A stretch of DNA of 64,000 nucleotides, from the IMG/VR virus record IMGVR_UViG_3300037587_000312, positions 32,552 through 96,551 of that record. The stretch is one strand, 5' to 3'. Of the stretch, positions 24,117-63,247 are shown piece after piece; within the stretch, counting starts at the first letter, position 1, and each line of letters starts with the position of its first letter. The notes beneath the pieces were generated by a model. It worked only from the letters and a program-made list of their open reading frames with translations, searched no databases and was not told the DNA's origin. The DNA is from a virus (Duplodnaviria; Heunggongvirae; Uroviricota; Caudoviricetes). The position numbers were made by a program, and so were the translations under genes.

Positions 24117-24545
24117 ATGAGTAAGATTATACAATTCTCAGGTGAACATAGATACCTGTCAAACTTCTATGATAAGGCACCTTTTCGTTTGTTTGGGTAT
24201 GCTTGGAGAAATTCCGAGAATGCCTACCAAGCGATGAAAAGTTCGGATCAAGATGTGTGGGAATCTATGACAGATCTCTCACCTTTTGAGTCAAAGAAAA
24301 TAGGTAAACGGATCTACCTGCGTCATGATTGGGATGAGGTTAAATATCGAACTATGTACCTTATTGTCAAAGCAAAATTCACACAGAATCGTGATATTGC
24401 AGAGATGCTCATTGCTACAGGTGATTGTTTGATTGAAGAAGGTAATACATGGGGAGATGTTACATGGGGTATTAGCCCTCCTGATACAGGGACAGGGACT
24501 AATTGGTTAGGTAAGATTTTAATGGAAGTGAGGGAGGAACTATAA
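24117..24545 (+). CDS. NADAR-domain protein (YbiA-like; putative ADP-ribosyl hydrolase)
   Basis: FSGEHRYLSNFY...ENAYQAMK...WG signature of the NADAR/DUF1768 family. Confidence 0.6.
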   Translation: MSKIIQFSGEHRYLSNFYDKAPFRLFGYAWRNSENAYQAMKSSDQDVWESMTDLSPFESKKIGKRIYLRHDWDEVKYRTMYLIVKAKFTQNRDIAEMLIATGDCLIEEGNTWGDVTWGISPPDTGTGTNWLGKILMEVREEL

Positions 24546-31200: not shown

Positions 31201-31414
31201 AACGGTCTCTGGTGTATGTGATGCATTCACACAGGATCTAGAAGAAATTCGGGAATTACAGCAAGCTGAACAGACCAAATTGGCTACTCAAATTGCTAAC
31301 CTGAATACCAAGCACGAAACTGCGACGAAAGAAGTGGTTGAAGCAACAAACGCTATCGCGAACATTCGTAATATGTTCCGTGGTAACACAACTCAAACTC
31401 AAGAGGAAGTATAA
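31151..31414 (+). CDS. hypothetical coiled-coil protein
   Basis: ORF; start uncertain. Confidence 0.25.
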   Translation: MKWRMIMLNQLLSKKTKTVSGVCDAFTQDLEEIRELQQAEQTKLATQIANLNTKHETATKEVVEATNAIANIRNMFRGNTTQTQEEV

Positions 31415-31415
31415 T

Positions 31416-32699
31416 ATGAATCTATCAGGCAAACAAATTCTAGGATGGGGTGGCTCAGCAGTAGGTGCTATTGCTCTGGCTGTCGTAATGGCTACAACAA
31501 TGGGCATCAACAACGCGGGTTATCGAACGGTAATTCAGGGTGTCGGAGGTGATATGAGCGTCAAGTATGATGCCGGTATTTACTTCCCGATGTTTGGTAA
31601 GACCACTGAGTATCCTGATTACCTGACGTATGACTTCAGTGCAAAGGATAAGTCCTGTGACTTTGAAGAGAACGATGGTATCAAGGTACGGTATCAGGAT
31701 GGTGGTGAGGGTGTAGTATGTGGGATGGCTAACGTAATGTTGCCTGTTGCTGGTGATGAGGAAGCCATGATCGCTTTCCACAAACGTTATCGTTCTGAGG
31801 CCGGTGTGCGAGCTAAGCTGCTGAACCAGACGTTCCCTAAGGCTCTGAACCTGACTGCTGTACTAATGAGTTCTGAGGAAGCCTATGCTACCAAACGTTC
31901 TGAGTACATTTCGATGGGTCGTGATCAGGTGGAGAATGGTTTGTATAAGACCAAACTCGTTGAGAAGAATGTACAGGTTGGTATTGACTCTGATGGCGAG
32001 CCTGAGATGCAGTTGAAGGAAGTCCCTCAGATCGTTATGGTCGGTGGTCTTGCTCAACATGACGCTAGTGATCTAACTCAGTGGGGTTTAACCCTCTCTC
32101 AATTCGACTTGAAAGCTTGGGACTTTGAGCCTAACACTCTGACCCAAATCCGTAAGAAACGTGCTGCTGAGATGGCTATCGTAACTGCTAAGGCTAATGC
32201 TAAGAAAGCTTATTGGGAGGAGCAGGAAGTTGTAGCTAACGGTGCCAAGAATGCTGCTGCAGCTAAGGCAGATGCTATTACCGCCGCACAACCGTTGATC
32301 GAGAACAAACTGCGCGACAAGCAATTGGCGATCATTGCAGCTGAGCAACGTACCGCGACTGCTATTGAGAACACTTTGGCCGCTAAGGAAGAAGAGAAGC
32401 GTCAACGTGCATTGGCTAAGGCCGCAGTTCAGGAAGGTAAGAAGATCAAGACCTTGGCCTCTGCTGAGAAGTTCCGTCTTGAGTCTATCGCTGAAGGTGG
32501 TGAACTACAGATGCGTCTGCACACTGCTGAAGTCATGAACAAGGATGCTTGGGTAGAGATTGGTAAGCAGAAATGGACTCCTGAGATCGTTATGGGTGGT
32601 GGTGAAGGTGGTCAGTTGAATGAAGTACAGGCAATGGTACAGACACAATTGATTAAAAACCTTCAGAATGTGGGTATCAACTCTGGTATTCCTAAGTAA
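31416..32699 (+). CDS. SPFH/band-7 (flotillin/prohibitin-like) membrane protein
   Basis: ATG 31416 after aagaggaag. N-terminal TM helix. Long Ala/Glu/Lys-rich coiled-coil region typical of flotillin/HflK-like proteins. Confidence 0.45.
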   Translation: MNLSGKQILGWGGSAVGAIALAVVMATTMGINNAGYRTVIQGVGGDMSVKYDAGIYFPMFGKTTEYPDYLTYDFSAKDKSCDFEENDGIKVRYQDGGEGVVCGMANVMLPVAGDEEAMIAFHKRYRSEAGVRAKLLNQTFPKALNLTAVLMSSEEAYATKRSEYISMGRDQVENGLYKTKLVEKNVQVGIDSDGEPEMQLKEVPQIVMVGGLAQHDASDLTQWGLTLSQFDLKAWDFEPNTLTQIRKKRAAEMAIVTAKANAKKAYWEEQEVVANGAKNAAAAKADAITAAQPLIENKLRDKQLAIIAAEQRTATAIENTLAAKEEEKRQRALAKAAVQEGKKIKTLASAEKFRLESIAEGGELQMRLHTAEVMNKDAWVEIGKQKWTPEIVMGGGEGGQLNEVQAMVQTQLIKNLQNVGINSGIPK

Positions 32700-32718
32700 G
32701 AAATAGTTTGACACAAAC

Positions 32719-32751
32719 AAGGGGATAGCTTATGCTATCCCCTTACTCGTT
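32719..32751 (+). terminator. terminator-like hairpin
   Basis: aaggggatagc-ttat-gctatcccctt then a weak T-tract. It overlaps a possible TTGACA-N17-TATGCT promoter (32708..32736). Confidence 0.4.
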
Positions 32752-32765
32752 TAAGGAAGAAAATT

Positions 32766-33209
32766 ATGAAAGATCCAGCAGGTTTTGCATACCAAGTTGC
32801 ACTGAATGGTCATGATGGTCAGATGTATGGCACTGAGCCTTATATCCACCATGTTATTGATGTGAATGATAGGCTGAAGGAACTGTTCCCAACTCTCTCT
32901 GAGATCTCCCTCCCTATTGCAGAGGCTGTCTCCTTCCTACATGATGTTGTAGAGGATACGGATATCACCTTAGAGAACCTCAAGGTGTTTGGCTTTCCTC
33001 AGGAAGTTATCGATGGTGTTGATGCCATGACAAAACGTGATGGTGAATCCTATGACGAATATATAGAGCGTTTATCTGGGAATCTAATAGCTGTTATGGT
33101 TAAGATTGCTGACTCATATTCTAACCTGACAGCATCTATCATCTCAGGTGGAACCAAGCGTATCGCTAAGTACACAAAGAACATCGAAATTCTGTCAAAA
33201 TTCCTTTGA
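32766..33209 (+). CDS. HD-domain small alarmone hydrolase (SpoT/Mesh1-like (p)ppGpp hydrolase)
   Basis: H...LHDVVEDT signature (HD..ED) in a 147-aa stand-alone protein. Confidence 0.55.
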   Translation: MKDPAGFAYQVALNGHDGQMYGTEPYIHHVIDVNDRLKELFPTLSEISLPIAEAVSFLHDVVEDTDITLENLKVFGFPQEVIDGVDAMTKRDGESYDEYIERLSGNLIAVMVKIADSYSNLTASIISGGTKRIAKYTKNIEILSKFL

Positions 33210-33233
33210 CATAGGGTATACTTGGTGTAGAAT
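33206..33233 (+). promoter_or_regulatory. sigma70-like promoter TTGACA-N16-TAGAAT
   Basis: Near-consensus hexamers upstream of 33265. Confidence 0.45.
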
Positions 33234-33264
33234 GGACTCATCTTAAATATCTGAGGACAAGAAT

Positions 33265-33459
33265 ATGGCTTACTATTCAACTGATAGTGAAGAACACCTT
33301 GTTAATATTGGTGCTATGCAAGATCCAAATGAAGCTGCAATGATGGATTGGTGGTTTGAAGATCCCTATGATTATTCCGGTGAGGATATGGATTGCGCCT
33401 TGAATCCTGAAGTAGAGGCACACAATGATGAAATTATGGCGGAGGGGAGTGGACTATGA
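33265..33459 (+). CDS. hypothetical acidic protein
   Basis: ORF. Confidence 0.3.
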   Translation: MAYYSTDSEEHLVNIGAMQDPNEAAMMDWWFEDPYDYSGEDMDCALNPEVEAHNDEIMAEGSGL

Positions 33460-33725
33460 AATATATCTGTGTTGAAAAAGAAGACGGCAAACAAGAGATT
33501 ATTGTTTTCCCCAAGACCATTGACCATGATGTTATGGCTGAAAGCGTAGGTCGTATGAAGAATAGTACATACGGTAACTGGAAGCGTGAGTGGCGTACCC
33601 CTGTATCAGCTGGATTTGTGACAATGGATTGGAAGTGCTACGGACGTAGTGAGACACTAGATCTTGATTCGCGGCCCGAAGAAGATACAGAAATTCTACA
33701 GAACCATTTTCCTTTTGGAGGATAG
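33456..33725 (+). CDS. hypothetical protein
   Basis: ORF. Confidence 0.3.
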   Translation: MKYICVEKEDGKQEIIVFPKTIDHDVMAESVGRMKNSTYGNWKREWRTPVSAGFVTMDWKCYGRSETLDLDSRPEEDTEILQNHFPFGG

Positions 33726-33728
33726 AAT

Positions 33729-34649
33729 ATGACTTGGGATACAATTAATCGGATGGATAGTACTGACACAGATGTTTGTAAGTTTGTGTTCACCAAAGAC
33801 GATGCCGTAGCAGAGGCAGTTCTCTATAAGTATGGATCTTATAAGGACCGTACTGTTATCTGCTGCTCTACTCAATCAGGCTGTCCTATGGGCTGTACAT
33901 TCTGTGGAACAGGTAAGCAGTTTATTCGTAATCTGACTACAGATGAAATTGTTGCTCAGGTTAAAGCATGTCTTGATCATGCGTTCTATAATCACGGTAC
34001 ACTCTATTCCGATATTGATAAGTTCCAGATCATGTTTATGAGTATGGGTGAGCCTATGCTTAACTGGAAAGCCCTTAAAGACGCCATCCAGATCCTTCAC
34101 TATTCTTATCGGAATGCTGCACTGTTGATTTCAACCAGTGCTCCTGAAACTATTGTGGCGTTCGGTGAGCTTATTGAATTGTCGAAAGAGATCCCACAAA
34201 TAGGTCTACAATTTTCAGTTCACGAATCTTTACAGGAAGAACGTGACAAGCTGATACCTTTCAAAAAGAAACTCTCATTACGGGGGTTGGCTGCGACAGG
34301 AGAGGCATGGGCATATCAAACAGGTCGTAAGGTTTACTTTAATTACTGTGTCCATGAGAAGAATAATGGTGTGGAGGACGCTCAGCGGCTCTCTGAACTG
34401 TTTAAGCCTGAGATGTGGGAAGCCACCATCTCCGTGATCTGTGAGGCTGATGAAAGTGTGTCTGCGTCCATTGAAAGGCAGGAGGAATTAGCTACAGATT
34501 TCTCTGGACTTCTACTTGAACAGGGTTATAATACACGAGTATTCAATCCAGCAGGTCAGGATGATATCGGAGGTGGCTGTGGTCAACTTTGGTTCACCCA
34601 AGAATGGATGAAGAACAACCCTGACAAAGTACGTAAAACACGAGGATAA
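33729..34649 (+). CDS. radical SAM RNA methyltransferase, RlmN/Cfr family (N-terminally shortened)
   Basis: VICCSTQSGCPMGCTFCGTGKQFIRNLTTDEIVAQV parallels the RlmN motif [33 protein letters not shown]. Also MSMGEPMLN (GEP) and a C-terminal GGGCGQL. Confidence 0.6.
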   Translation: MTWDTINRMDSTDTDVCKFVFTKDDAVAEAVLYKYGSYKDRTVICCSTQSGCPMGCTFCGTGKQFIRNLTTDEIVAQVKACLDHAFYNHGTLYSDIDKFQIMFMSMGEPMLNWKALKDAIQILHYSYRNAALLISTSAPETIVAFGELIELSKEIPQIGLQFSVHESLQEERDKLIPFKKKLSLRGLAATGEAWAYQTGRKVYFNYCVHEKNNGVEDAQRLSELFKPEMWEATISVICEADESVSASIERQEELATDFSGLLLEQGYNTRVFNPAGQDDIGGGCGQLWFTQEWMKNNPDKVRKTRG

Positions 34650-34655
34650 AGAACT

Positions 34656-35051
34656 ATGAAATTACTACAACGAATTAAAGATGATCGCTTGGTAGCTCGT
34701 AAGGCCAAAGACACTACCCGCGCAACACTACTCACTACCTTGGTAGGAGAGGCTGAGACTGCGCTGAAGGGCAAGCAAGCAGCTAAGTTTGATACGCTCA
34801 GTCTGGTTAAGAAGTTCATGGCTAACTGTCAGGAGACACTCGCTGTTCGCTATACACCAGCTATCCAAGATGAGATCGATATCCTCAAAGAATATATCCC
34901 AGACCAGTTGACTAAGGAGGAGATTCAAGATATTCTTGCTTCTAAGTTCACAGGTGAAACACTTGGTAAGTTCATGGGCTTCATGAATAAAAACTATCGA
35001 GGAAAGTTCGATGGTAAACTTGCAAGTGATGTGTATAAAAGTACAGGATAA
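34656..35051 (+). CDS. GatB/YqeY-domain protein
   Basis: Length and sequence pattern (KDTTRATLLTTL...IDILKEYIPDQLTKEEIQDIL...GKFMGFMNKNYRGKFDGKLASDV) match the YqeY family. Confidence 0.5.
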   Translation: MKLLQRIKDDRLVARKAKDTTRATLLTTLVGEAETALKGKQAAKFDTLSLVKKFMANCQETLAVRYTPAIQDEIDILKEYIPDQLTKEEIQDILASKFTGETLGKFMGFMNKNYRGKFDGKLASDVYKSTG

Positions 35052-35080
35052 CTCTAAAGGTACTCATGAGGATATAGAAA

Positions 35081-35293
35081 ATGACTAAATCTAAAGCTTA
35101 TCTAACCACAACAGTGGTTTCAATCCTCCTAGTTATTGCATGGTTCACCCAAGTATGGTATCTTGCACTGAACAATGAAAGCTATTCTGGGGATCAAGGA
35201 TTTGTAATATTCGTCTTGTGTTTTGCGGAGGCAGCTGGTATCATATGTCTTACTACCTTTGTGGTTGACATCATCAAGAAAATGAGGGTTTAA
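35081..35293 (+). CDS. small 2-TM membrane protein, tandem paralog A
   Basis: MTKSKAYL...DIIKK; 40-50% identical to the next ORF. Confidence 0.35.
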   Translation: MTKSKAYLTTTVVSILLVIAWFTQVWYLALNNESYSGDQGFVIFVLCFAEAAGIICLTTFVVDIIKKMRV

Positions 35294-35295
35294 TT

Positions 35296-35511
35296 ATGAC
35301 CAAATCTAAAGCTTATCTATATACAGCGATTGTTTCAGGTACCCTCTGTATCGGATGGTTCATCCAAGTGTGGTATGTTATGCTGAATTCCACTGTATAC
35401 TCAGCACCCCAAGTACTCGGGATGAGTTGCTTGTTTCTTATAGAGGCGTGTGTTATCATCTTTCTTACTGCTTATATAATTGACATAATTGACAAGAAGA
35501 GGGATTGGTAA
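35296..35511 (+). CDS. small 2-TM membrane protein, tandem paralog B
   Basis: MTKSKAYL...DIIDKK. Confidence 0.35.
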   Translation: MTKSKAYLYTAIVSGTLCIGWFIQVWYVMLNSTVYSAPQVLGMSCLFLIEACVIIFLTAYIIDIIDKKRDW

Positions 35512-35891
35512 TGGAAATTTCAGCAGAGTACTTTAAAGAAGCCACAGGTCACGATCCGATCCAAGATGACCTCGAGCGTAGCAACTGTAAAGAGGCTGGC
35601 GAACTGGGTCATGGTTCCTGTGGATGGAATCACCAGCGAGATATGCCGGTGTTTATGGTTGGGGTTGAGACTACCCTTGAGAAACTAACTCAGGAAGAGG
35701 CTGCACTTCTCCTTGGACAAGCCTCTACTTTAGCTAGGTTAAATGATTGGCGTTTGGGGCAATCCCTATGGAACCTATTACCTCGTGACTTAATAGGTAA
35801 ATACACAGCTACTGTGTATGACTTCTTCTATTGGGGAAATAATGAGAAAGTGATTGAATGTTTCTACAAGATTTTCGTGAAAACCAGTTGA
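35505..35891 (+). CDS. hypothetical protein
   Basis: ORF. Confidence 0.3.
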   Translation: MVMEISAEYFKEATGHDPIQDDLERSNCKEAGELGHGSCGWNHQRDMPVFMVGVETTLEKLTQEEAALLLGQASTLARLNDWRLGQSLWNLLPRDLIGKYTATVYDFFYWGNNEKVIECFYKIFVKTS

Positions 35892-35925
35892 CTTTAAGTA
35901 AGAAATCTGTATAATGGAGGAATAA

Positions 35926-36174
35926 ATGATCAGTGCTTGGTGGTTGATTGTAATATTTGGCGGAGTTTTCCTTTACTCCTTCCACTTAAAGGATGTATAC
36001 TATGGGTATGGTCGTGCTAATGCATTGATCTGGGATCTGAAGTGTAAGGTTGAACAGGGTAAGGATGGAAGTCTAAGGTTTATTTCTCCGGTAGGTAAAG
36101 GTACGGAGAGTTATGTAGGGTATTTAGGAAAATCAGTTGGCAAGCTTTTACGGAAAGACGGTACGTTGAAATAA
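35926..36174 (+). CDS. hypothetical small membrane protein
   Basis: ORF with RBS ggagg. Confidence 0.3.
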   Translation: MISAWWLIVIFGGVFLYSFHLKDVYYGYGRANALIWDLKCKVEQGKDGSLRFISPVGKGTESYVGYLGKSVGKLLRKDGTLK

Positions 36175-36183
36175 GGAATTTAG

Positions 36184-36271
36184 ACTCGGTGTTCCCCTAC
36201 CAGCCTTCTAAGCTGATGACATAAAACCGGGGGATGGAAGTCGAGAGGTTCGATACCTCCACCGAGCGCCA
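36184..36271 (+). ncRNA. degenerate tRNA-like element (acceptor + T-arm + Arg-TCT-like anticodon hairpin, no canonical D-arm)
   Basis: 3' end GAGG-TTCGATA-CCTCC-ACCGAGC-G-CCA pairs with 5' ACTCGGT. Hairpin CAGC-CTTCTAA-GCTG could present anticodon UCU. No D-arm found by eye. Confidence 0.2.
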
Positions 36272-36276
36272 TTTTA

Positions 36277-36362
36277 GGAAGATTGGCAGAGTGGTAATGC
36301 AGCTGGTTGCTAACCAGTAGTGTCGAAAGGCACCGTAGGTTCGATACCTACATCTTCCGCCA
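36277..36362 (+). tRNA. tRNA-Ser (anticodon GCT), class II, CCA encoded
   Basis: Acceptor GGAAGAT/ATCTTCC, 3-bp D-stem, anticodon loop TTGCTAA, long variable arm, T-loop TTCGATA, 3' GCCA. Confidence 0.6.
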
Positions 36363-36372
36363 GTTTAATATA

Positions 36373-36465
36373 CCCCGCGTGGTGGAATGTATACGCACCG
36401 CAATTAAAATGCGACGACTTCGGTCATGAGGGTTCGAGTCTCTCCGTGGGGACCATTTTAGGGTA
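36373..36465 (+). tRNA. tRNA-Leu (anticodon TAA), class II, CCA encoded
   Basis: Acceptor CCCCGCG/CGTGGGG (one GU), anticodon loop ATTAAAA, variable hairpin GAC-TTCG-GTC, T-arm GAGGG-TTCGAGT-CTCTC, 3' ACCA. Confidence 0.55.
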
Positions 36466-36475
36466 AGGGAAACAA

Positions 36476-36982
36476 GTGAAGATGATTTGGAAAGATGTAG
36501 TTGGTTTTGAGAACTACTTTAAAATAAGTAATCATGGGGATATCTATTCATATAGAAGTGCTAGGGTTTTAAAAAGAGTTAAAGACAAATCGGGATATCT
36601 CACACTACCCACCAAAATTGGTGGTCGGGAAGGTAAGGATTATTGTTTTAAGATCCACAGGTTAGTGGCCATAGCTTTTATTCCTAATCCTAAGGGGAAA
36701 CCTTGCGTAAACCACAAAGATGGGGATAAGGAGAATAATCATATCTCTAATCTAGAATGGTGTACTGTTAAGGAGAATACTCAGCATGCTTTTGACACAG
36801 GGTTATCGAAAGCCTTAAAAGGGGAGAAGAATGTAGGTTCGAGGATTTCCCAAGTAGATGCCGATACTATAAGATTGGTATATACCCCATATTGTAGAAC
36901 CTACGGAGCACGGGCATTAGGAAGAAGATTTGGTATCTCTCACTCCAATATACTCAAAGTTATAAATGGTATTTCATACTAG
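36476..36982 (+). CDS. HNH homing endonuclease (NUMOD4 + HNH_3) inserted in tRNA cluster
   Basis: WKDVVGFENYFKISNHGDIYS (NUMOD4) and HRLVAIAFIPNPKGKPCVNHKDGDKENNHISNLEWCT (HNH_3). Confidence 0.65.
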   Translation: MKMIWKDVVGFENYFKISNHGDIYSYRSARVLKRVKDKSGYLTLPTKIGGREGKDYCFKIHRLVAIAFIPNPKGKPCVNHKDGDKENNHISNLEWCTVKENTQHAFDTGLSKALKGEKNVGSRISQVDADTIRLVYTPYCRTYGARALGRRFGISHSNILKVINGISY

Positions 36983-36988
36983 AATTTT

Positions 36989-37078
36989 AGGACTGACGCA
37001 GGTATTGGTTTGCCTGCACTCGCCTCATAAGCGAGTCTCTTCTGAGCGTTGTGGGTTCAATTCCCTCCGGTCCTACCA
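36989..37078 (+). tRNA. unusual tRNA with anticodon CAT (Met/Ile2-type) and a 15-nt variable region
   Basis: Acceptor AGGACTG/CGGTCCT, D-arm GCAGG-N10-CCTGC, anticodon arm CTCGC-CTCATAA-GCGAG, T-arm GTGGG-TTCAATT-CCCTC (one mismatch), 3' ACCA. The long variable arm is atypical for CAT tRNAs. Confidence 0.35.
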
Positions 37079-37086
37079 CCTATTAA

Positions 37087-37163
37087 GCGCCGGTGCCTCG
37101 AATGGATAAGGGCTGGGATTGCAAATCTCATGTTTGGCAGTTCAAGTCTGCCACGGTGCTCCA
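37087..37163 (+). tRNA. tRNA-Cys (anticodon GCA), CCA encoded
   Basis: Acceptor GCGCCGG/ACGGTGC (6 of 7 pairs), anticodon arm TGGGA-TTGCAAA-TCTCA (same loop as E. coli tRNA-Cys), T-arm GGCAG-TTCAAGT-CTGCC. Confidence 0.55.
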
Positions 37164-37850: not shown

Positions 37851-37878
37851 TTGACACCAACAACACACGCTGTACAAT
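37851..37878 (+). promoter_or_regulatory. sigma70-like promoter TTGACA-N16-TACAAT
   Basis: Near-consensus hexamers upstream of 37910. Confidence 0.45.
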
Positions 37879-61922: not shown

Positions 61923-62183
61923 TTAAAATACTCCTTTGTCTTCTGAATATGATAGTTTACCACAAAGATCACACTTATTGTGATAATTATCCTCCCCTTT
62001 ATGGTAATCACGGAAGTAGTCTGATCTGAAAGACTCGTGGGAACAGAGATCCTGTATTTTCATGAGATCTTTGTTCAAGATTTCCTTCCGTTTATAAATT
62101 TCCTTATCGAGGAGTTCCTTCTCCTTCAAATACTCATTCATAAGAATCCCTATAGCCACTTTATTACTCATCATTCCCTCCAA
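61923..62183 (-). CDS. hypothetical protein with C-terminal HxC...CDLC
   Basis: ORF. Confidence 0.3.
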   Translation of the reverse strand: MEGMMSNKVAIGILMNEYLKEKELLDKEIYKRKEILNKDLMKIQDLCSHESFRSDYFRDYHKGEDNYHNKCDLCGKLSYSEDKGVF

Positions 62184-63247
62184 TAGATGTCTTGAACAGT
62201 CATAAGTACCTTAGATGCCAATTTTACATCAGGCTTTCGCCGTAAGCAAGTGTTTTTGTACAATTCACCACGAATTAACTCATCTTTCCCTTCAGCCATA
62301 GCCAAAAGCTCATTATAGGTGTACTTCCCTGCTCGGATATCCAACAACTCCTGTGCATCTGGACGTTTTACGATGACTTCACCCGTTGTAAGGATTTCCT
62401 CACCCATACGGAGCAACCTGATTAGATGAGATGCGTGTTTGGTGTCATATCCGTGGTGTTCCTCTAGTACGCTACGCTTTTTGTTACGATTAGCCTTCCA
62501 ATTCCAGTAGTTTTTATGGTCATCGTTCTCCCTGAGGTACTCATCCTTGTTAAACTTGACGATAAGATGAGGAGCACCGTACTCTGACCTTGATTCATCA
62601 TCAAAAACAGTGTTCAAGGTAAAATCATCTGAGAAAGTTTCATACCCTTTGGCTTTATCTGAAAATTCCCCAATATAGAGACCAAAAAGATTATTCCCGA
62701 AGGGTACTAACCGCCCATGACGGAATGATTCAAGTGTGAACATCCTTGATAAGATCTTAGCACTAGTAAAGTTCTGCACCATACTAACGAAATCAGTCTG
62801 ACGAGGTGGTTCTGCCGACTTTGGATTGTTAATGAACTTATTATGACCCTTGATACGCTTCATCTGGCTCATTGCATAACCTGAGAAGGTAAAAGCTACC
62901 TTACTAGATAGTAAATCCTTACGATAGTGCTGTAAAACACCGTATGCTTCACTGGATTGAATGATAGACTCTTCTGGAACCCACAACGTTTCAATAATAT
63001 TGGGGTTACAGTCCAAATATAGCTTCATGAAGTTGGTCAGTTCATAAACTTTGGCATCTTCCATCTCTGGGATAGTCTGTTCACGACAAGGGAACCAAGG
63101 TGTACGGATATTCTCCTGTGTTCCACAGAAAATACCCCTGACATCTACATCAGACTCGGGTGTGCTCATGCCGTAGGCATGTGAACCAGCTAAATGTGAG
63201 ACAATTAGGTTATCTACTCCTGTAATTTTGTGTTCAAATCTATTCAT
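62171..63247 (-). CDS. pol-beta-superfamily nucleotidyltransferase (RlaP-like, GS...DxD motif)
   Basis: LAGSHAYGMSTPESDVDVRGIF matches the GS-x-AYG...D-x-D nucleotidyltransferase signature. Confidence 0.5.
   Translation of the reverse strand: MNRFEHKITGVDNLIVSHLAGSHAYGMSTPESDVDVRGIFCGTQENIRTPWFPCREQTIPEMEDAKVYELTNFMKLYLDCNPNIIETLWVPEESIIQSSEAYGVLQHYRKDLLSSKVAFTFSGYAMSQMKRIKGHNKFINNPKSAEPPRQTDFVSMVQNFTSAKILSRMFTLESFRHGRLVPFGNNLFGLYIGEFSDKAKGYETFSDDFTLNTVFDDESRSEYGAPHLIVKFNKDEYLRENDDHKNYWNWKANRNKKRSVLEEHHGYDTKHASHLIRLLRMGEEILTTGEVIVKRPDAQELLDIRAGKYTYNELLAMAEGKDELIRGELYKNTCLRRKPDVKLASKVLMTVQDIYWRE

Follow-up and report, generated by a model that had tools for sequence, protein, structure and literature searches.

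The locus and its genes

The locus considered here lies in a 64-kb window, i.e. the stretch of 64,000 nucleotides (positions 32,552 to 96,551) of the IMG/VR virus record IMGVR_UViG_3300037587_000312 that was analysed as a whole; its main block of ~4.4 kb occupies window positions 32766-37163. The block encodes a stand-alone HD-domain hydrolase, a short radical S-adenosylmethionine (SAM) methylase resembling RlmN and Cfr, a YqeY-family protein and a group of tRNA genes, and further open reading frames (ORFs) specify proteins of 64, 89, 128 and 82 aa, a paralogous 70/71-aa pair and an HNH/NUMOD4 endonuclease (Table 1). An earlier note on this DNA had located the hydrolase, methylase and YqeY ORFs at exactly the coordinates found here, and had read the block, whose further ORFs it left unmentioned, as a co-directional module directed at translation. 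Co-directional it is, although this feature is unspecific; all ORFs of at least 180 aa from ~23.4 to 51 kb lie on the + strand, the GC skew is positive over 22-52 kb, and since the sizeable ORFs of the entire ~30-kb arm share that strand, the common orientation is not specific to these genes. A protein identical to the methylase is encoded on a JGI contig of 121,737 bp, and the phage also encodes a tape measure protein, a baseplate wedge protein, a Pol I-type polymerase, a primase-helicase and an ATP-dependent ligase. No close nucleotide relative was found in INPHARED, where the sole match was a 74-bp tRNA-like sequence, and PADLOC gave no defence-system match for the seven proteins checked.

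A short, mostly phage-borne branch of the class A radical SAM methylases

The 306-residue methylase matches the RlmN model TIGR00048 at 2.9e-35 over model positions 77-343 of 355, with 121.9 bits where the curated cut-off is 290, and matches Cfr models at ~1e-29, with 101-103 bits where the cut-offs are 468-550; by these NCBIfam equivalog cut-offs it is neither RlmN nor Cfr proper. The active site residues are nevertheless those of the class. The cluster cysteines C52/C56/C59 correspond to RlmN C125/C129/C132, C45, seven residues ahead of the first cluster cysteine, corresponds to RlmN C118 and Cfr C105, and C284 within the sequence GGGCGQL corresponds to RlmN C355 and Cfr C338; all are invariant in 40 members of the family. 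The short proteins and their full-length relatives have 36 near-invariant columns in common, including the GEP, ST and SxH motifs, and these columns take in every catalytic and SAM-binding motif.

An AlphaFold model of the protein (predicted local distance difference test score, pLDDT, 89.9) shows a partial TIM barrel with a beta' extension and a C-terminal cysteine loop. When this model was compared with the PDB by Foldseek, RlmN and Cfr were the nearest folds at E values of 1e-20 to 1e-15 with TM-scores of 0.62-0.76, the best being RlmN entries 6FZ6, 3RFA and 5HR7, with Cfr 9P0P at 9.5e-15, whereas the next radical SAM proteins scored only ~1e-5 to 2e-5. The earlier description of the gene as a shortened RlmN/Cfr-family member with an RlmN-like CX3CX2C context was thus sound, both in the missing N-terminal domain (the TIGR00048 match starts at ~77) and in the nearest solved sequences and folds, and profile and structure comparison of the ORF gave no clustering with non-RNA methyltransferase families. 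RlmN, a C2-methyltransferase with dual specificity for 23S rRNA A2503 and tRNA A37, accordingly shares with the phage protein the CX3CX2C cluster, the resolving cysteine, the methyl-carrier cysteine in a CGQL loop, the SAM-binding motifs, and the partial TIM barrel with its beta-sheet extension, while Cfr, the C8-methyltransferase of 23S A2503, shares class and mechanism. On these grounds there is high confidence that class A chemistry is retained in the short family.

Absence of the N-terminal domain appears to be a trait of the family rather than the result of a mis-called start codon, because the gene carries its own GGAGGA Shine-Dalgarno sequence and start codon, the 89-aa ORF upstream is unrelated, and the extensions of longer family members are unmatched. 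The 89-aa ORF was considered as a split or read-through N-terminal domain, being in the same frame as the methylase; a TAG codon and a strong Shine-Dalgarno sequence lie between the two. This candidate was rejected, since the ORF in addition is not RlmN-like and has no homologue beside the methylase in the other methylase loci. Nor do the longer members conceal an RlmN N-terminal domain in their extensions, as the hidden Markov model (HMM) match still begins at model position ~60-95.

The family is extensive. Relatives are encoded on 278 IMG/VR contigs. Over 120 clusters stand at 57% identity or higher, nearly all of 295-335 aa, and a second subfamily of ~295 aa was also found. An exhaustive search recovered short members as far down as ~1e-24, and full-length RlmN and Cfr proteins (340-370 aa, aligned from their own residue 65-95) enter only from ~1e-27. 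Copies with 50-57% identity occur in cultured phages that infect Stenotrophomonas, Xanthomonas, Aeromonas, Vibrio and Salmonella, where they are annotated as hypothetical, "radical SAM, partial", "RlmN" or "prohibitin"; Vibrio phage 496E54-1 and Salmonella phage Arash are two of the cultured carriers. The label "prohibitin family protein" on the gene in two INPHARED records is apparently an annotation slip. In GTDB genomes there are 68 loci, many of them contigs of metagenome-assembled genomes (MAGs), and some in chromosomes of cultured Mycolicibacterium, Duganella, Rhizobium, Bradyrhizobium, Cupriavidus and Curvibacter, where the regions around the gene resemble, and may be, prophages. The protein is best described as a new variant within a large, strongly conserved, mostly phage- or prophage-borne branch of the class A radical SAM methylases, one that is widespread in large phages.

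A few members have unusual architectures. One, P0129, carries a fused Nudix domain, the gene order being Nudix ... [methylase-Nudix] - NAPRTase - NMNAT; this fusion is confined to one cluster on one contig and was consequently downgraded as a recurrent "Rosetta stone". The distant member P0205 (759 aa) joins the methylase to an HD and HD_assoc region that is dNTPase-like. Another distant member, P0206 (434 aa), has a weakly receiver-like N-terminus ahead of the methylase, and P0189 (3261 aa) contains 18 short repeated matches to methylase residues ~202-245. Locus L010 holds two ORFs of the short family ~6 kb apart. In L025, L054 and L066, tRNAs of the amber-suppressor type (CUA anticodon) are 7-8 kb away from the methylase, a hint that stop-codon-recoded large phages are among the carriers.

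Recognition of the substrate

RlmN and Cfr read the shape of RNA through many backbone contacts, and their N-terminal HhH2 domain, which is positively charged, serves to anchor the RNA (PMC13001441). Among individual residues, RlmN R206 hydrogen-bonds G29 of the tRNA (PMC5130265), and Cfr R327, the equivalent of RlmN R344, touches the ribose of the target adenosine A2503 (PMC13001441). The HhH2 domain, both of these arginines and the basic surface are all missing from the short family. R206 is replaced by alanine in 66 of 67 short-family sequences and R344 by phenylalanine in all 67, although both sites are 100% K/R in 27 full-length relatives; the median isoelectric point (pI) of the short proteins is 5.5 with a net charge of -6 (n=114), as compared to 9.1 and +9 for the 27 full-length relatives after removal of their first 65 residues. 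Other changes are specific to the family, viz. a cysteine loop one residue longer than that of RlmN and the newly invariant basic residues K98, R250 and R270.

Thus RlmN differs from the phage protein in having the HhH2 domain, a basic character and R206/R344, whereas the phage protein is acidic, phage-borne and without a fixed genomic partner. Cfr differs in that its N-terminal domain anchors H91/H92 (PMC13001441), and the phage protein scores lower for Cfr than for RlmN; Cfr residues W101, S187, R184/R185 and R327 are not conserved. Given the lost domain, the acidic charge and the two replaced arginines, substrate recognition appears to have been rebuilt, and with moderate confidence it would differ from that of RlmN and Cfr. 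Action in the manner of RlmN on 23S A2503 or tRNA A37 is doubtful, because the family is without the features by which RlmN and Cfr hold RNA.

A scheme for the reaction can be drawn from the conserved residues. One SAM would methylate Cys284, and a second would be cleaved at the [4Fe-4S] cluster held by C52/C56/C59; the resulting 5'-deoxyadenosyl radical would activate the S-methyl group, which would then add to a ring carbon with sp2 character in the substrate, with C2 or C8 of an adenine as the most plausible acceptor, and Cys45 would resolve the covalent intermediate. We infer that methyl transfer would proceed as in RlmN, onto an sp2 carbon in a ring that is probably adenine, but in a substrate docked unlike 23S rRNA or tRNA in RlmN and Cfr. 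Confidence in the identity of that substrate is low. An RNA recognized in a way other than that of RlmN is a reasonable candidate, though short of an even chance, and a free adenine nucleotide or NAD-related metabolite (NAD, nicotinamide adenine dinucleotide) is a tentative one; a target outside these classes is unlikely, and DNA or a dNTP is quite improbable. The literature yielded nothing on phage RlmN-like enzymes.

The block as a probable accessory island

The question whether these genes form a coordinated module was addressed by comparing 84 methylase loci besides the window (80 viral loci and four INPHARED phages), in which homologues of the window proteins were sought by tblastn at 1e-4. 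A homologue of the HD protein is near the methylase in a single one of the 84 (L049) and YqeY in three, at +1.5 kb in L009 and at 8-9 kb in L021 and L039, while in 10 of 85 loci, the window counted, a tRNA gene is found no more than 5 kb away. De novo clustering of the flanking genes gave no universal neighbour. The reciprocal comparison, anchored on YqeY, agrees; the methylase is present in 3/23 and the HD gene in 2/23 of these loci, and the closest YqeY relatives, L159 (66%) and L160 (59%), have no methylase alongside. The pairings of the methylase with YqeY, of the methylase with the HD gene, and of YqeY with tRNAs and the HD gene were each seen again exactly once, in phages that are otherwise unrelated, and no other gene is common to the window and any of these loci. 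Single recurrences of this kind fit an accessory island that is loosely put together rather than a fixed unit.

Promoter-like sites of the sigma-70 type, matching the consensus at 10 or 11 of 12 positions, point in the same direction. The site at 33206, directly past the HD stop codon, would open a separate unit made up of the 64-aa and 89-aa ORFs, the methylase and YqeY; together with the sites before the HD gene and before the 82-aa ORF and tRNAs it suggests separate units, in which only the methylase and YqeY would be likely to be co-transcribed. A fourth such site is at 37851-37878, and the four best sites (10-11/12) are all in intergenic gaps of the + strand, a pattern that resembles an early region with multiple host-type promoters.

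It is therefore with high confidence that there is no fixed module, and the coordinated translation-directed unit of the earlier note is not supported, whether the methylase loci or the 23 YqeY-anchored loci are considered. On balance, the 4.4-kb stretch appears to belong to a long arm of co-directional accessory genes in a ~122-kb tailed phage, its genes independently acquired rather than parts of one functional module. As accessory genes of a large phage, the HD hydrolase, YqeY, tRNAs and homing endonuclease are nothing out of the ordinary. Several points weigh against this picture and against a methylase that docks its substrate in a new way. To our knowledge every characterized class A methylase acts on RNA, and the prior accordingly favours RNA. 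The acidic overall charge is compatible with a local RNA-binding patch, which the newly invariant basic residues could form. The promoter-like sites are consensus matches whose total number is not above the shuffled expectation, and the gap of only 6 bp makes co-transcription of the methylase and YqeY genes probable. The once-recurring pairings may leave room for a weak functional affinity among these genes, and tblastn at 1e-4 can overlook very divergent HD or YqeY homologues.

Alternative roles for the methylase

The commonest recognizable neighbours of the methylase are genes of NAD salvage. A survey of 127 non-redundant methylase loci, with one clonal group collapsed, found members of the NAPRTase family (NAMPT/PncB), NMNAT, NMNAT-Nudix (NatV-like), NrtR-type Nudix, PncA-like isochorismatase and phosphoribosyl pyrophosphate (PRPP) synthetase, identities that are confirmed by Pfam. 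One or more of these genes lies in the flank of 32/127 loci, within 3 kb in 30 and as the directly adjacent ORF in 17, and the linked loci span 10-17 of the 43 methylase lineages at 70% identity; the closest relatives of the window methylase (L086, L007, L006, L009) are among them. In four Saccharibacteria MAG contigs (L092, L096, L097, L101) the methylase is on the opposite strand, with PncA-PncB-Nudix on one side and an NrtR-like Nudix plus a NAPRTase-family gene of ~630 aa on the other.

Accordingly, the substrate of the methylase might be a free nucleotide that contains adenine (or pyridinium) and is linked to NAD+ salvage or ADP-ribose metabolism, with NAD+, NMN, ADP-ribose and a nucleotide signal as candidates; the enzyme would then be an add-on to phage NAD-reconstitution genes against NAD-depleting defences. 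Besides the neighbourhood and its spread over many lineages, this would be in keeping with the Nudix fusion P0129 within its Nudix/NAPRTase/NMNAT order, with the dNTPase-like HD region of P0205, and with the loss of RNA-docking features, which suits a small substrate. It nevertheless appears rather unlikely. Phage NAD+ salvage cassettes (NadV/NAMPT with NatV NMNAT-Nudix, or of the PncA-PncB-NadD type) are the commonest neighbourhood of the family but are absent from the window, which like ~75% of methylase loci has no NAD gene nearby; there is no NAMPT or NatV in its 64 kb, and the only NAD- or ADP-ribose-related gene detected is a NADAR-domain ORF at 24180-24542, ~9.6 kb from the methylase, with 31% identity to NADAR proteins that recur near the methylase in other phages. 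In a control anchored on YqeY, NAD-salvage genes are near YqeY in 8/23 loci, including loci without the methylase, and since this rate is similar, proximity to NAD genes is largely a trait of large-phage accessory islands. Adjacency is thus weakened as proof of function, and the link of methylase and NAD is only suggestive. The Nudix fusion, a single case, could reflect a gene call that ran two ORFs together. Enzymes of class A work slowly and consume two SAM molecules, which would poorly fit the bulk conversion of a metabolite. The literature search found nothing that ties the methylase to NAD salvage. A bolder form of the proposal, that the short family is the first class A methylase not acting on rRNA or tRNA, C-methylating instead either a free nucleotide (adenine or pyridinium) from the NAD+/ADP-ribose network or a nucleotide immune signal, and travelling with NAD-reconstitution genes as a counter-defence, would be a speculative and unlikely one.

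The module of the earlier note, in which the truncated methylase would act on A37 of phage tRNAs or on 23S A2503, YqeY would aid tRNA handling and the HD protein would counter alarmones, is an unlikely explanation as well. All four components are tied by family to translation or the stringent response, the methylase and YqeY genes are 6 bp apart, the methylase gene of Stenotrophomonas phage ANB28, like that of its relative L030, has tRNA genes around it, and A37 is present in all four window tRNAs. The YqeY/GatB-type domain is thought to bind tRNA, and YqeY could in principle stand in for the lost N-terminal domain in trans. Bacterial hosts, however, already have RlmN of their own. The grouping is moreover not conserved, the promoter-like sites are separate, and the family is acidic and has lost the RNA-docking domain along with the conserved RNA-contact arginines. 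The tRNAs themselves also speak against it. Four were found by ARAGORN, all of which encode CCA and have A37-A38; the "four or five" of the earlier note stands as four, a fifth being found by neither ARAGORN nor Rfam. The E. coli RlmN substrates are tRNAs for Arg, Asp, Gln, Glu and His, and a U38 to A change abolishes methylation (PMC5130265), so that the window tRNAs (Ser, Leu, possibly Met, and Cys) do not conform to the E. coli rules either in identity or in having A38. As for 23S rRNA, RlmN and Cfr act on the naked molecule during assembly (PMC13001441), a substrate that would be ill-suited to lytic infection.

C-methylation of adenine in DNA or dATP, as a hypermodification against restriction, is very improbable: phages often modify DNA bases, some methylase loci hold DNA methylase, polymerase, primase-helicase or ribonucleotide reductase genes within 10 kb, and P0205 recalls the dATP-clearing enzymes that Z-genome phages have, but there is no consistent tie to replication or nucleotide-synthesis genes, the window gene is in an accessory arm with polymerase and primase 15-20 kb away on the opposite strand, the flux demanded of a slow enzyme would be high, and we know of no phage DNA containing 2-methyl- or 8-methyldeoxyadenosine (m2dA or m8dA).

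The HD hydrolase and the other genes of the block

The 147-aa HD protein belongs to the stand-alone pyrophosphohydrolases of the small alarmone hydrolase (SAH) type. It matches phrog_990 at 4e-44 and the spoT_relA N-terminal region model TIGR00691 at 5.6e-11 (model positions 1-119), and among solved structures it comes closest to the (p)ppApp hydrolase Aph1 (149 aa, PDB 7SMG, 7.6e-15), with RelSeq 1VJ7 at 1e-9; the Pfam HD match taken alone scores 14.4, below the cut-off of 22. The HDxxED motif is present (H59 D60 ... E63 D64), and H29, H59-D60, E63-D64, D116 and N120 align to the metal and catalytic residues of RelSeq and Aph1. The SpoT/Mesh1-like assignment made earlier is therefore well supported, with no catalytic residue missing in the alignment.

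The residues that characterize Aph1 are D24, R96, D116, R119, K133 and Y134, among which D24 and R119 determine its ppApp specificity (PMC10083569). Aph1, from a Bacteroides prophage, is like the window protein stand-alone, phage-encoded and equipped with the H...HD...ED...D...N set; unlike Aph1, which has the full specificity signature, the window protein keeps only part of it, namely R96 (here R102) and a K-Y pair, K135-Y136, that is near the position of K133/Y134 but outside the aligned stretch. D24, D116 and R119 are replaced by Y21, T122 and I125, respectively. Consequently the full signature of (p)ppApp specificity is absent, and with Tyr and Ile in place of D24 and R119 the preferred base may be adenine or guanine. 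Phage SAHs are already known; PaSpo of Salmonella phage SSU5, like the window protein a phage-encoded SAH, neutralises toxSAS toxins (PMC9712102). Most likely the HD protein would strip 3'-pyrophosphates from (p)ppApp- or (p)ppGpp-type nucleotides, and by analogy with the known phage SAHs this would blunt stringent or toxSAS-type responses of the host.

YqeY is also as first described. The protein matches PF09424 at 3.8e-11 with 43.7 bits, above the cut-off of 27, and its residues 5-129 cover profile positions 2-141 of 143, so that it is a full-length match to the YqeY/GatB C-terminal domain family; it also belongs to the common phage family phrog_1460 (5.6e-29). It has no consistent link to the methylase, tRNAs or HD protein in other loci. 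YqeY is often beside NAD-salvage genes, with Nudix at +1 kb and NAMPT at +2.4 kb (L166, L167, L169-L171), and in a group of jumbo phages of ~360 kb (L174, L176, L177, L179, L181) a Macro-domain gene is always at +1095 after YqeY.

In the tRNA cluster the homing endonuclease sits between two tRNA pairs; mobile endonucleases typically invade phage tRNA clusters. The tRNA-like gene with the CAU anticodon is atypical in its 6-bp anticodon stem and long variable arm, has no Rfam match at E<=0.1, and could be an unusual tRNA (e.g. Ile2-like) or a degenerate one. The small ORFs are less informative. The 89-aa ORF matches phrog_3988 and phrog_8320, neither with an annotated function, and the tandem 70- and 71-aa membrane proteins, both of which begin MTKSKAYL, have no family matches in Pfam or phrog.

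Two genes outside the block may be mentioned. Just upstream of the HD gene, at 31338-32699, is a 453-aa SPFH/Band 7 (prohibitin-like) protein, whose homologues are 4-5 kb from the methylase in L019, L020, L022, L045 and L060. Far from the block, on the - strand at 62171-63247, is a nucleotidyltransferase of phrog_388 (1.6e-75), a translation-related gene, possibly a tRNA nucleotidyltransferase.

Table 1. Predicted features of the block (window coordinates)
Feature	Position	Strand	Evidence or remark
Sigma-70 promoter-like site, 10/12 matches	32708-32736	+	Gap before HD gene
Stand-alone HD pyrophosphohydrolase, SAH type, 147 aa	32766-33209	+	Profile and structure-sequence matches
Sigma-70 promoter-like site, 11/12 matches	33206-33233	+	Directly past HD stop
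Two small ORFs, 64 aa and 89 aa	33265-33459 and 33456-33725 (span 33265-33725)	+	
Short RlmN/Cfr-like class A radical SAM methylase, 306 aa, without N-terminal HhH2 domain	33729-34649	+	
Codons for C45 ... C52-X3-C56-X2-C59 (resolving Cys and cluster motif)	33861-33905	+	Invariant in 40 members
Codons for C-terminal loop D279-L287 (DIGGGCGQL) with methyl-carrier Cys284	34563-34589	+	
YqeY-family (GatB/YqeY-like) protein, 131 aa	34656-35051	+	Begins 6 bp past methylase stop
Two tandem paralogous small membrane proteins, 70 and 71 aa	35081-35293 and 35296-35511	+	Sequence likeness
128-aa and 82-aa ORFs	35505-36174	+	Promoter-like site between them
Sigma-70 promoter-like site, 11/12 matches	35888-35915	+	Before 82-aa ORF and tRNAs
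tRNA-Ser(GCU)	36277-36362	+	ARAGORN; Rfam RF00005, 59.9 bits
tRNA-Leu(UAA)	36373-36455	+	ARAGORN; Rfam RF00005, 36.6 bits
HNH/NUMOD4 homing endonuclease	36476-36982	+	PF07463, PF13392; phrog_59 at 4e-51
Atypical 90-nt tRNA-like gene, CAU anticodon ("Met")	36989-37078	+	ARAGORN only
tRNA-Cys(GCA)	37087-37163	+	ARAGORN; Rfam, 31.7 bits

Implications for the class A methylases

Class A radical SAM methylases are known to us from two enzymes only, RlmN and Cfr, both of which act on RNA. The short family adds a third branch to these two; large, strongly conserved and carried mostly by phages, it appears to have kept the chemistry while discarding the RNA-docking apparatus. In databases its members are labelled either "23S rRNA (adenine2503-C2)-methyltransferase" or "hypothetical", and the first label is probably wrong at the level of the substrate. 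Cfr is a clinically important resistance determinant, and in viromes a gene carrying the 23S methyltransferase label could pass for a Cfr-like resistance gene; nothing points to such a role for the methylase described here. Since cultured phages carry the gene, the question of the substrate is directly testable, and the real substrate would reveal either a new phage strategy of RNA modification or a new small-molecule reaction for this class of enzymes.

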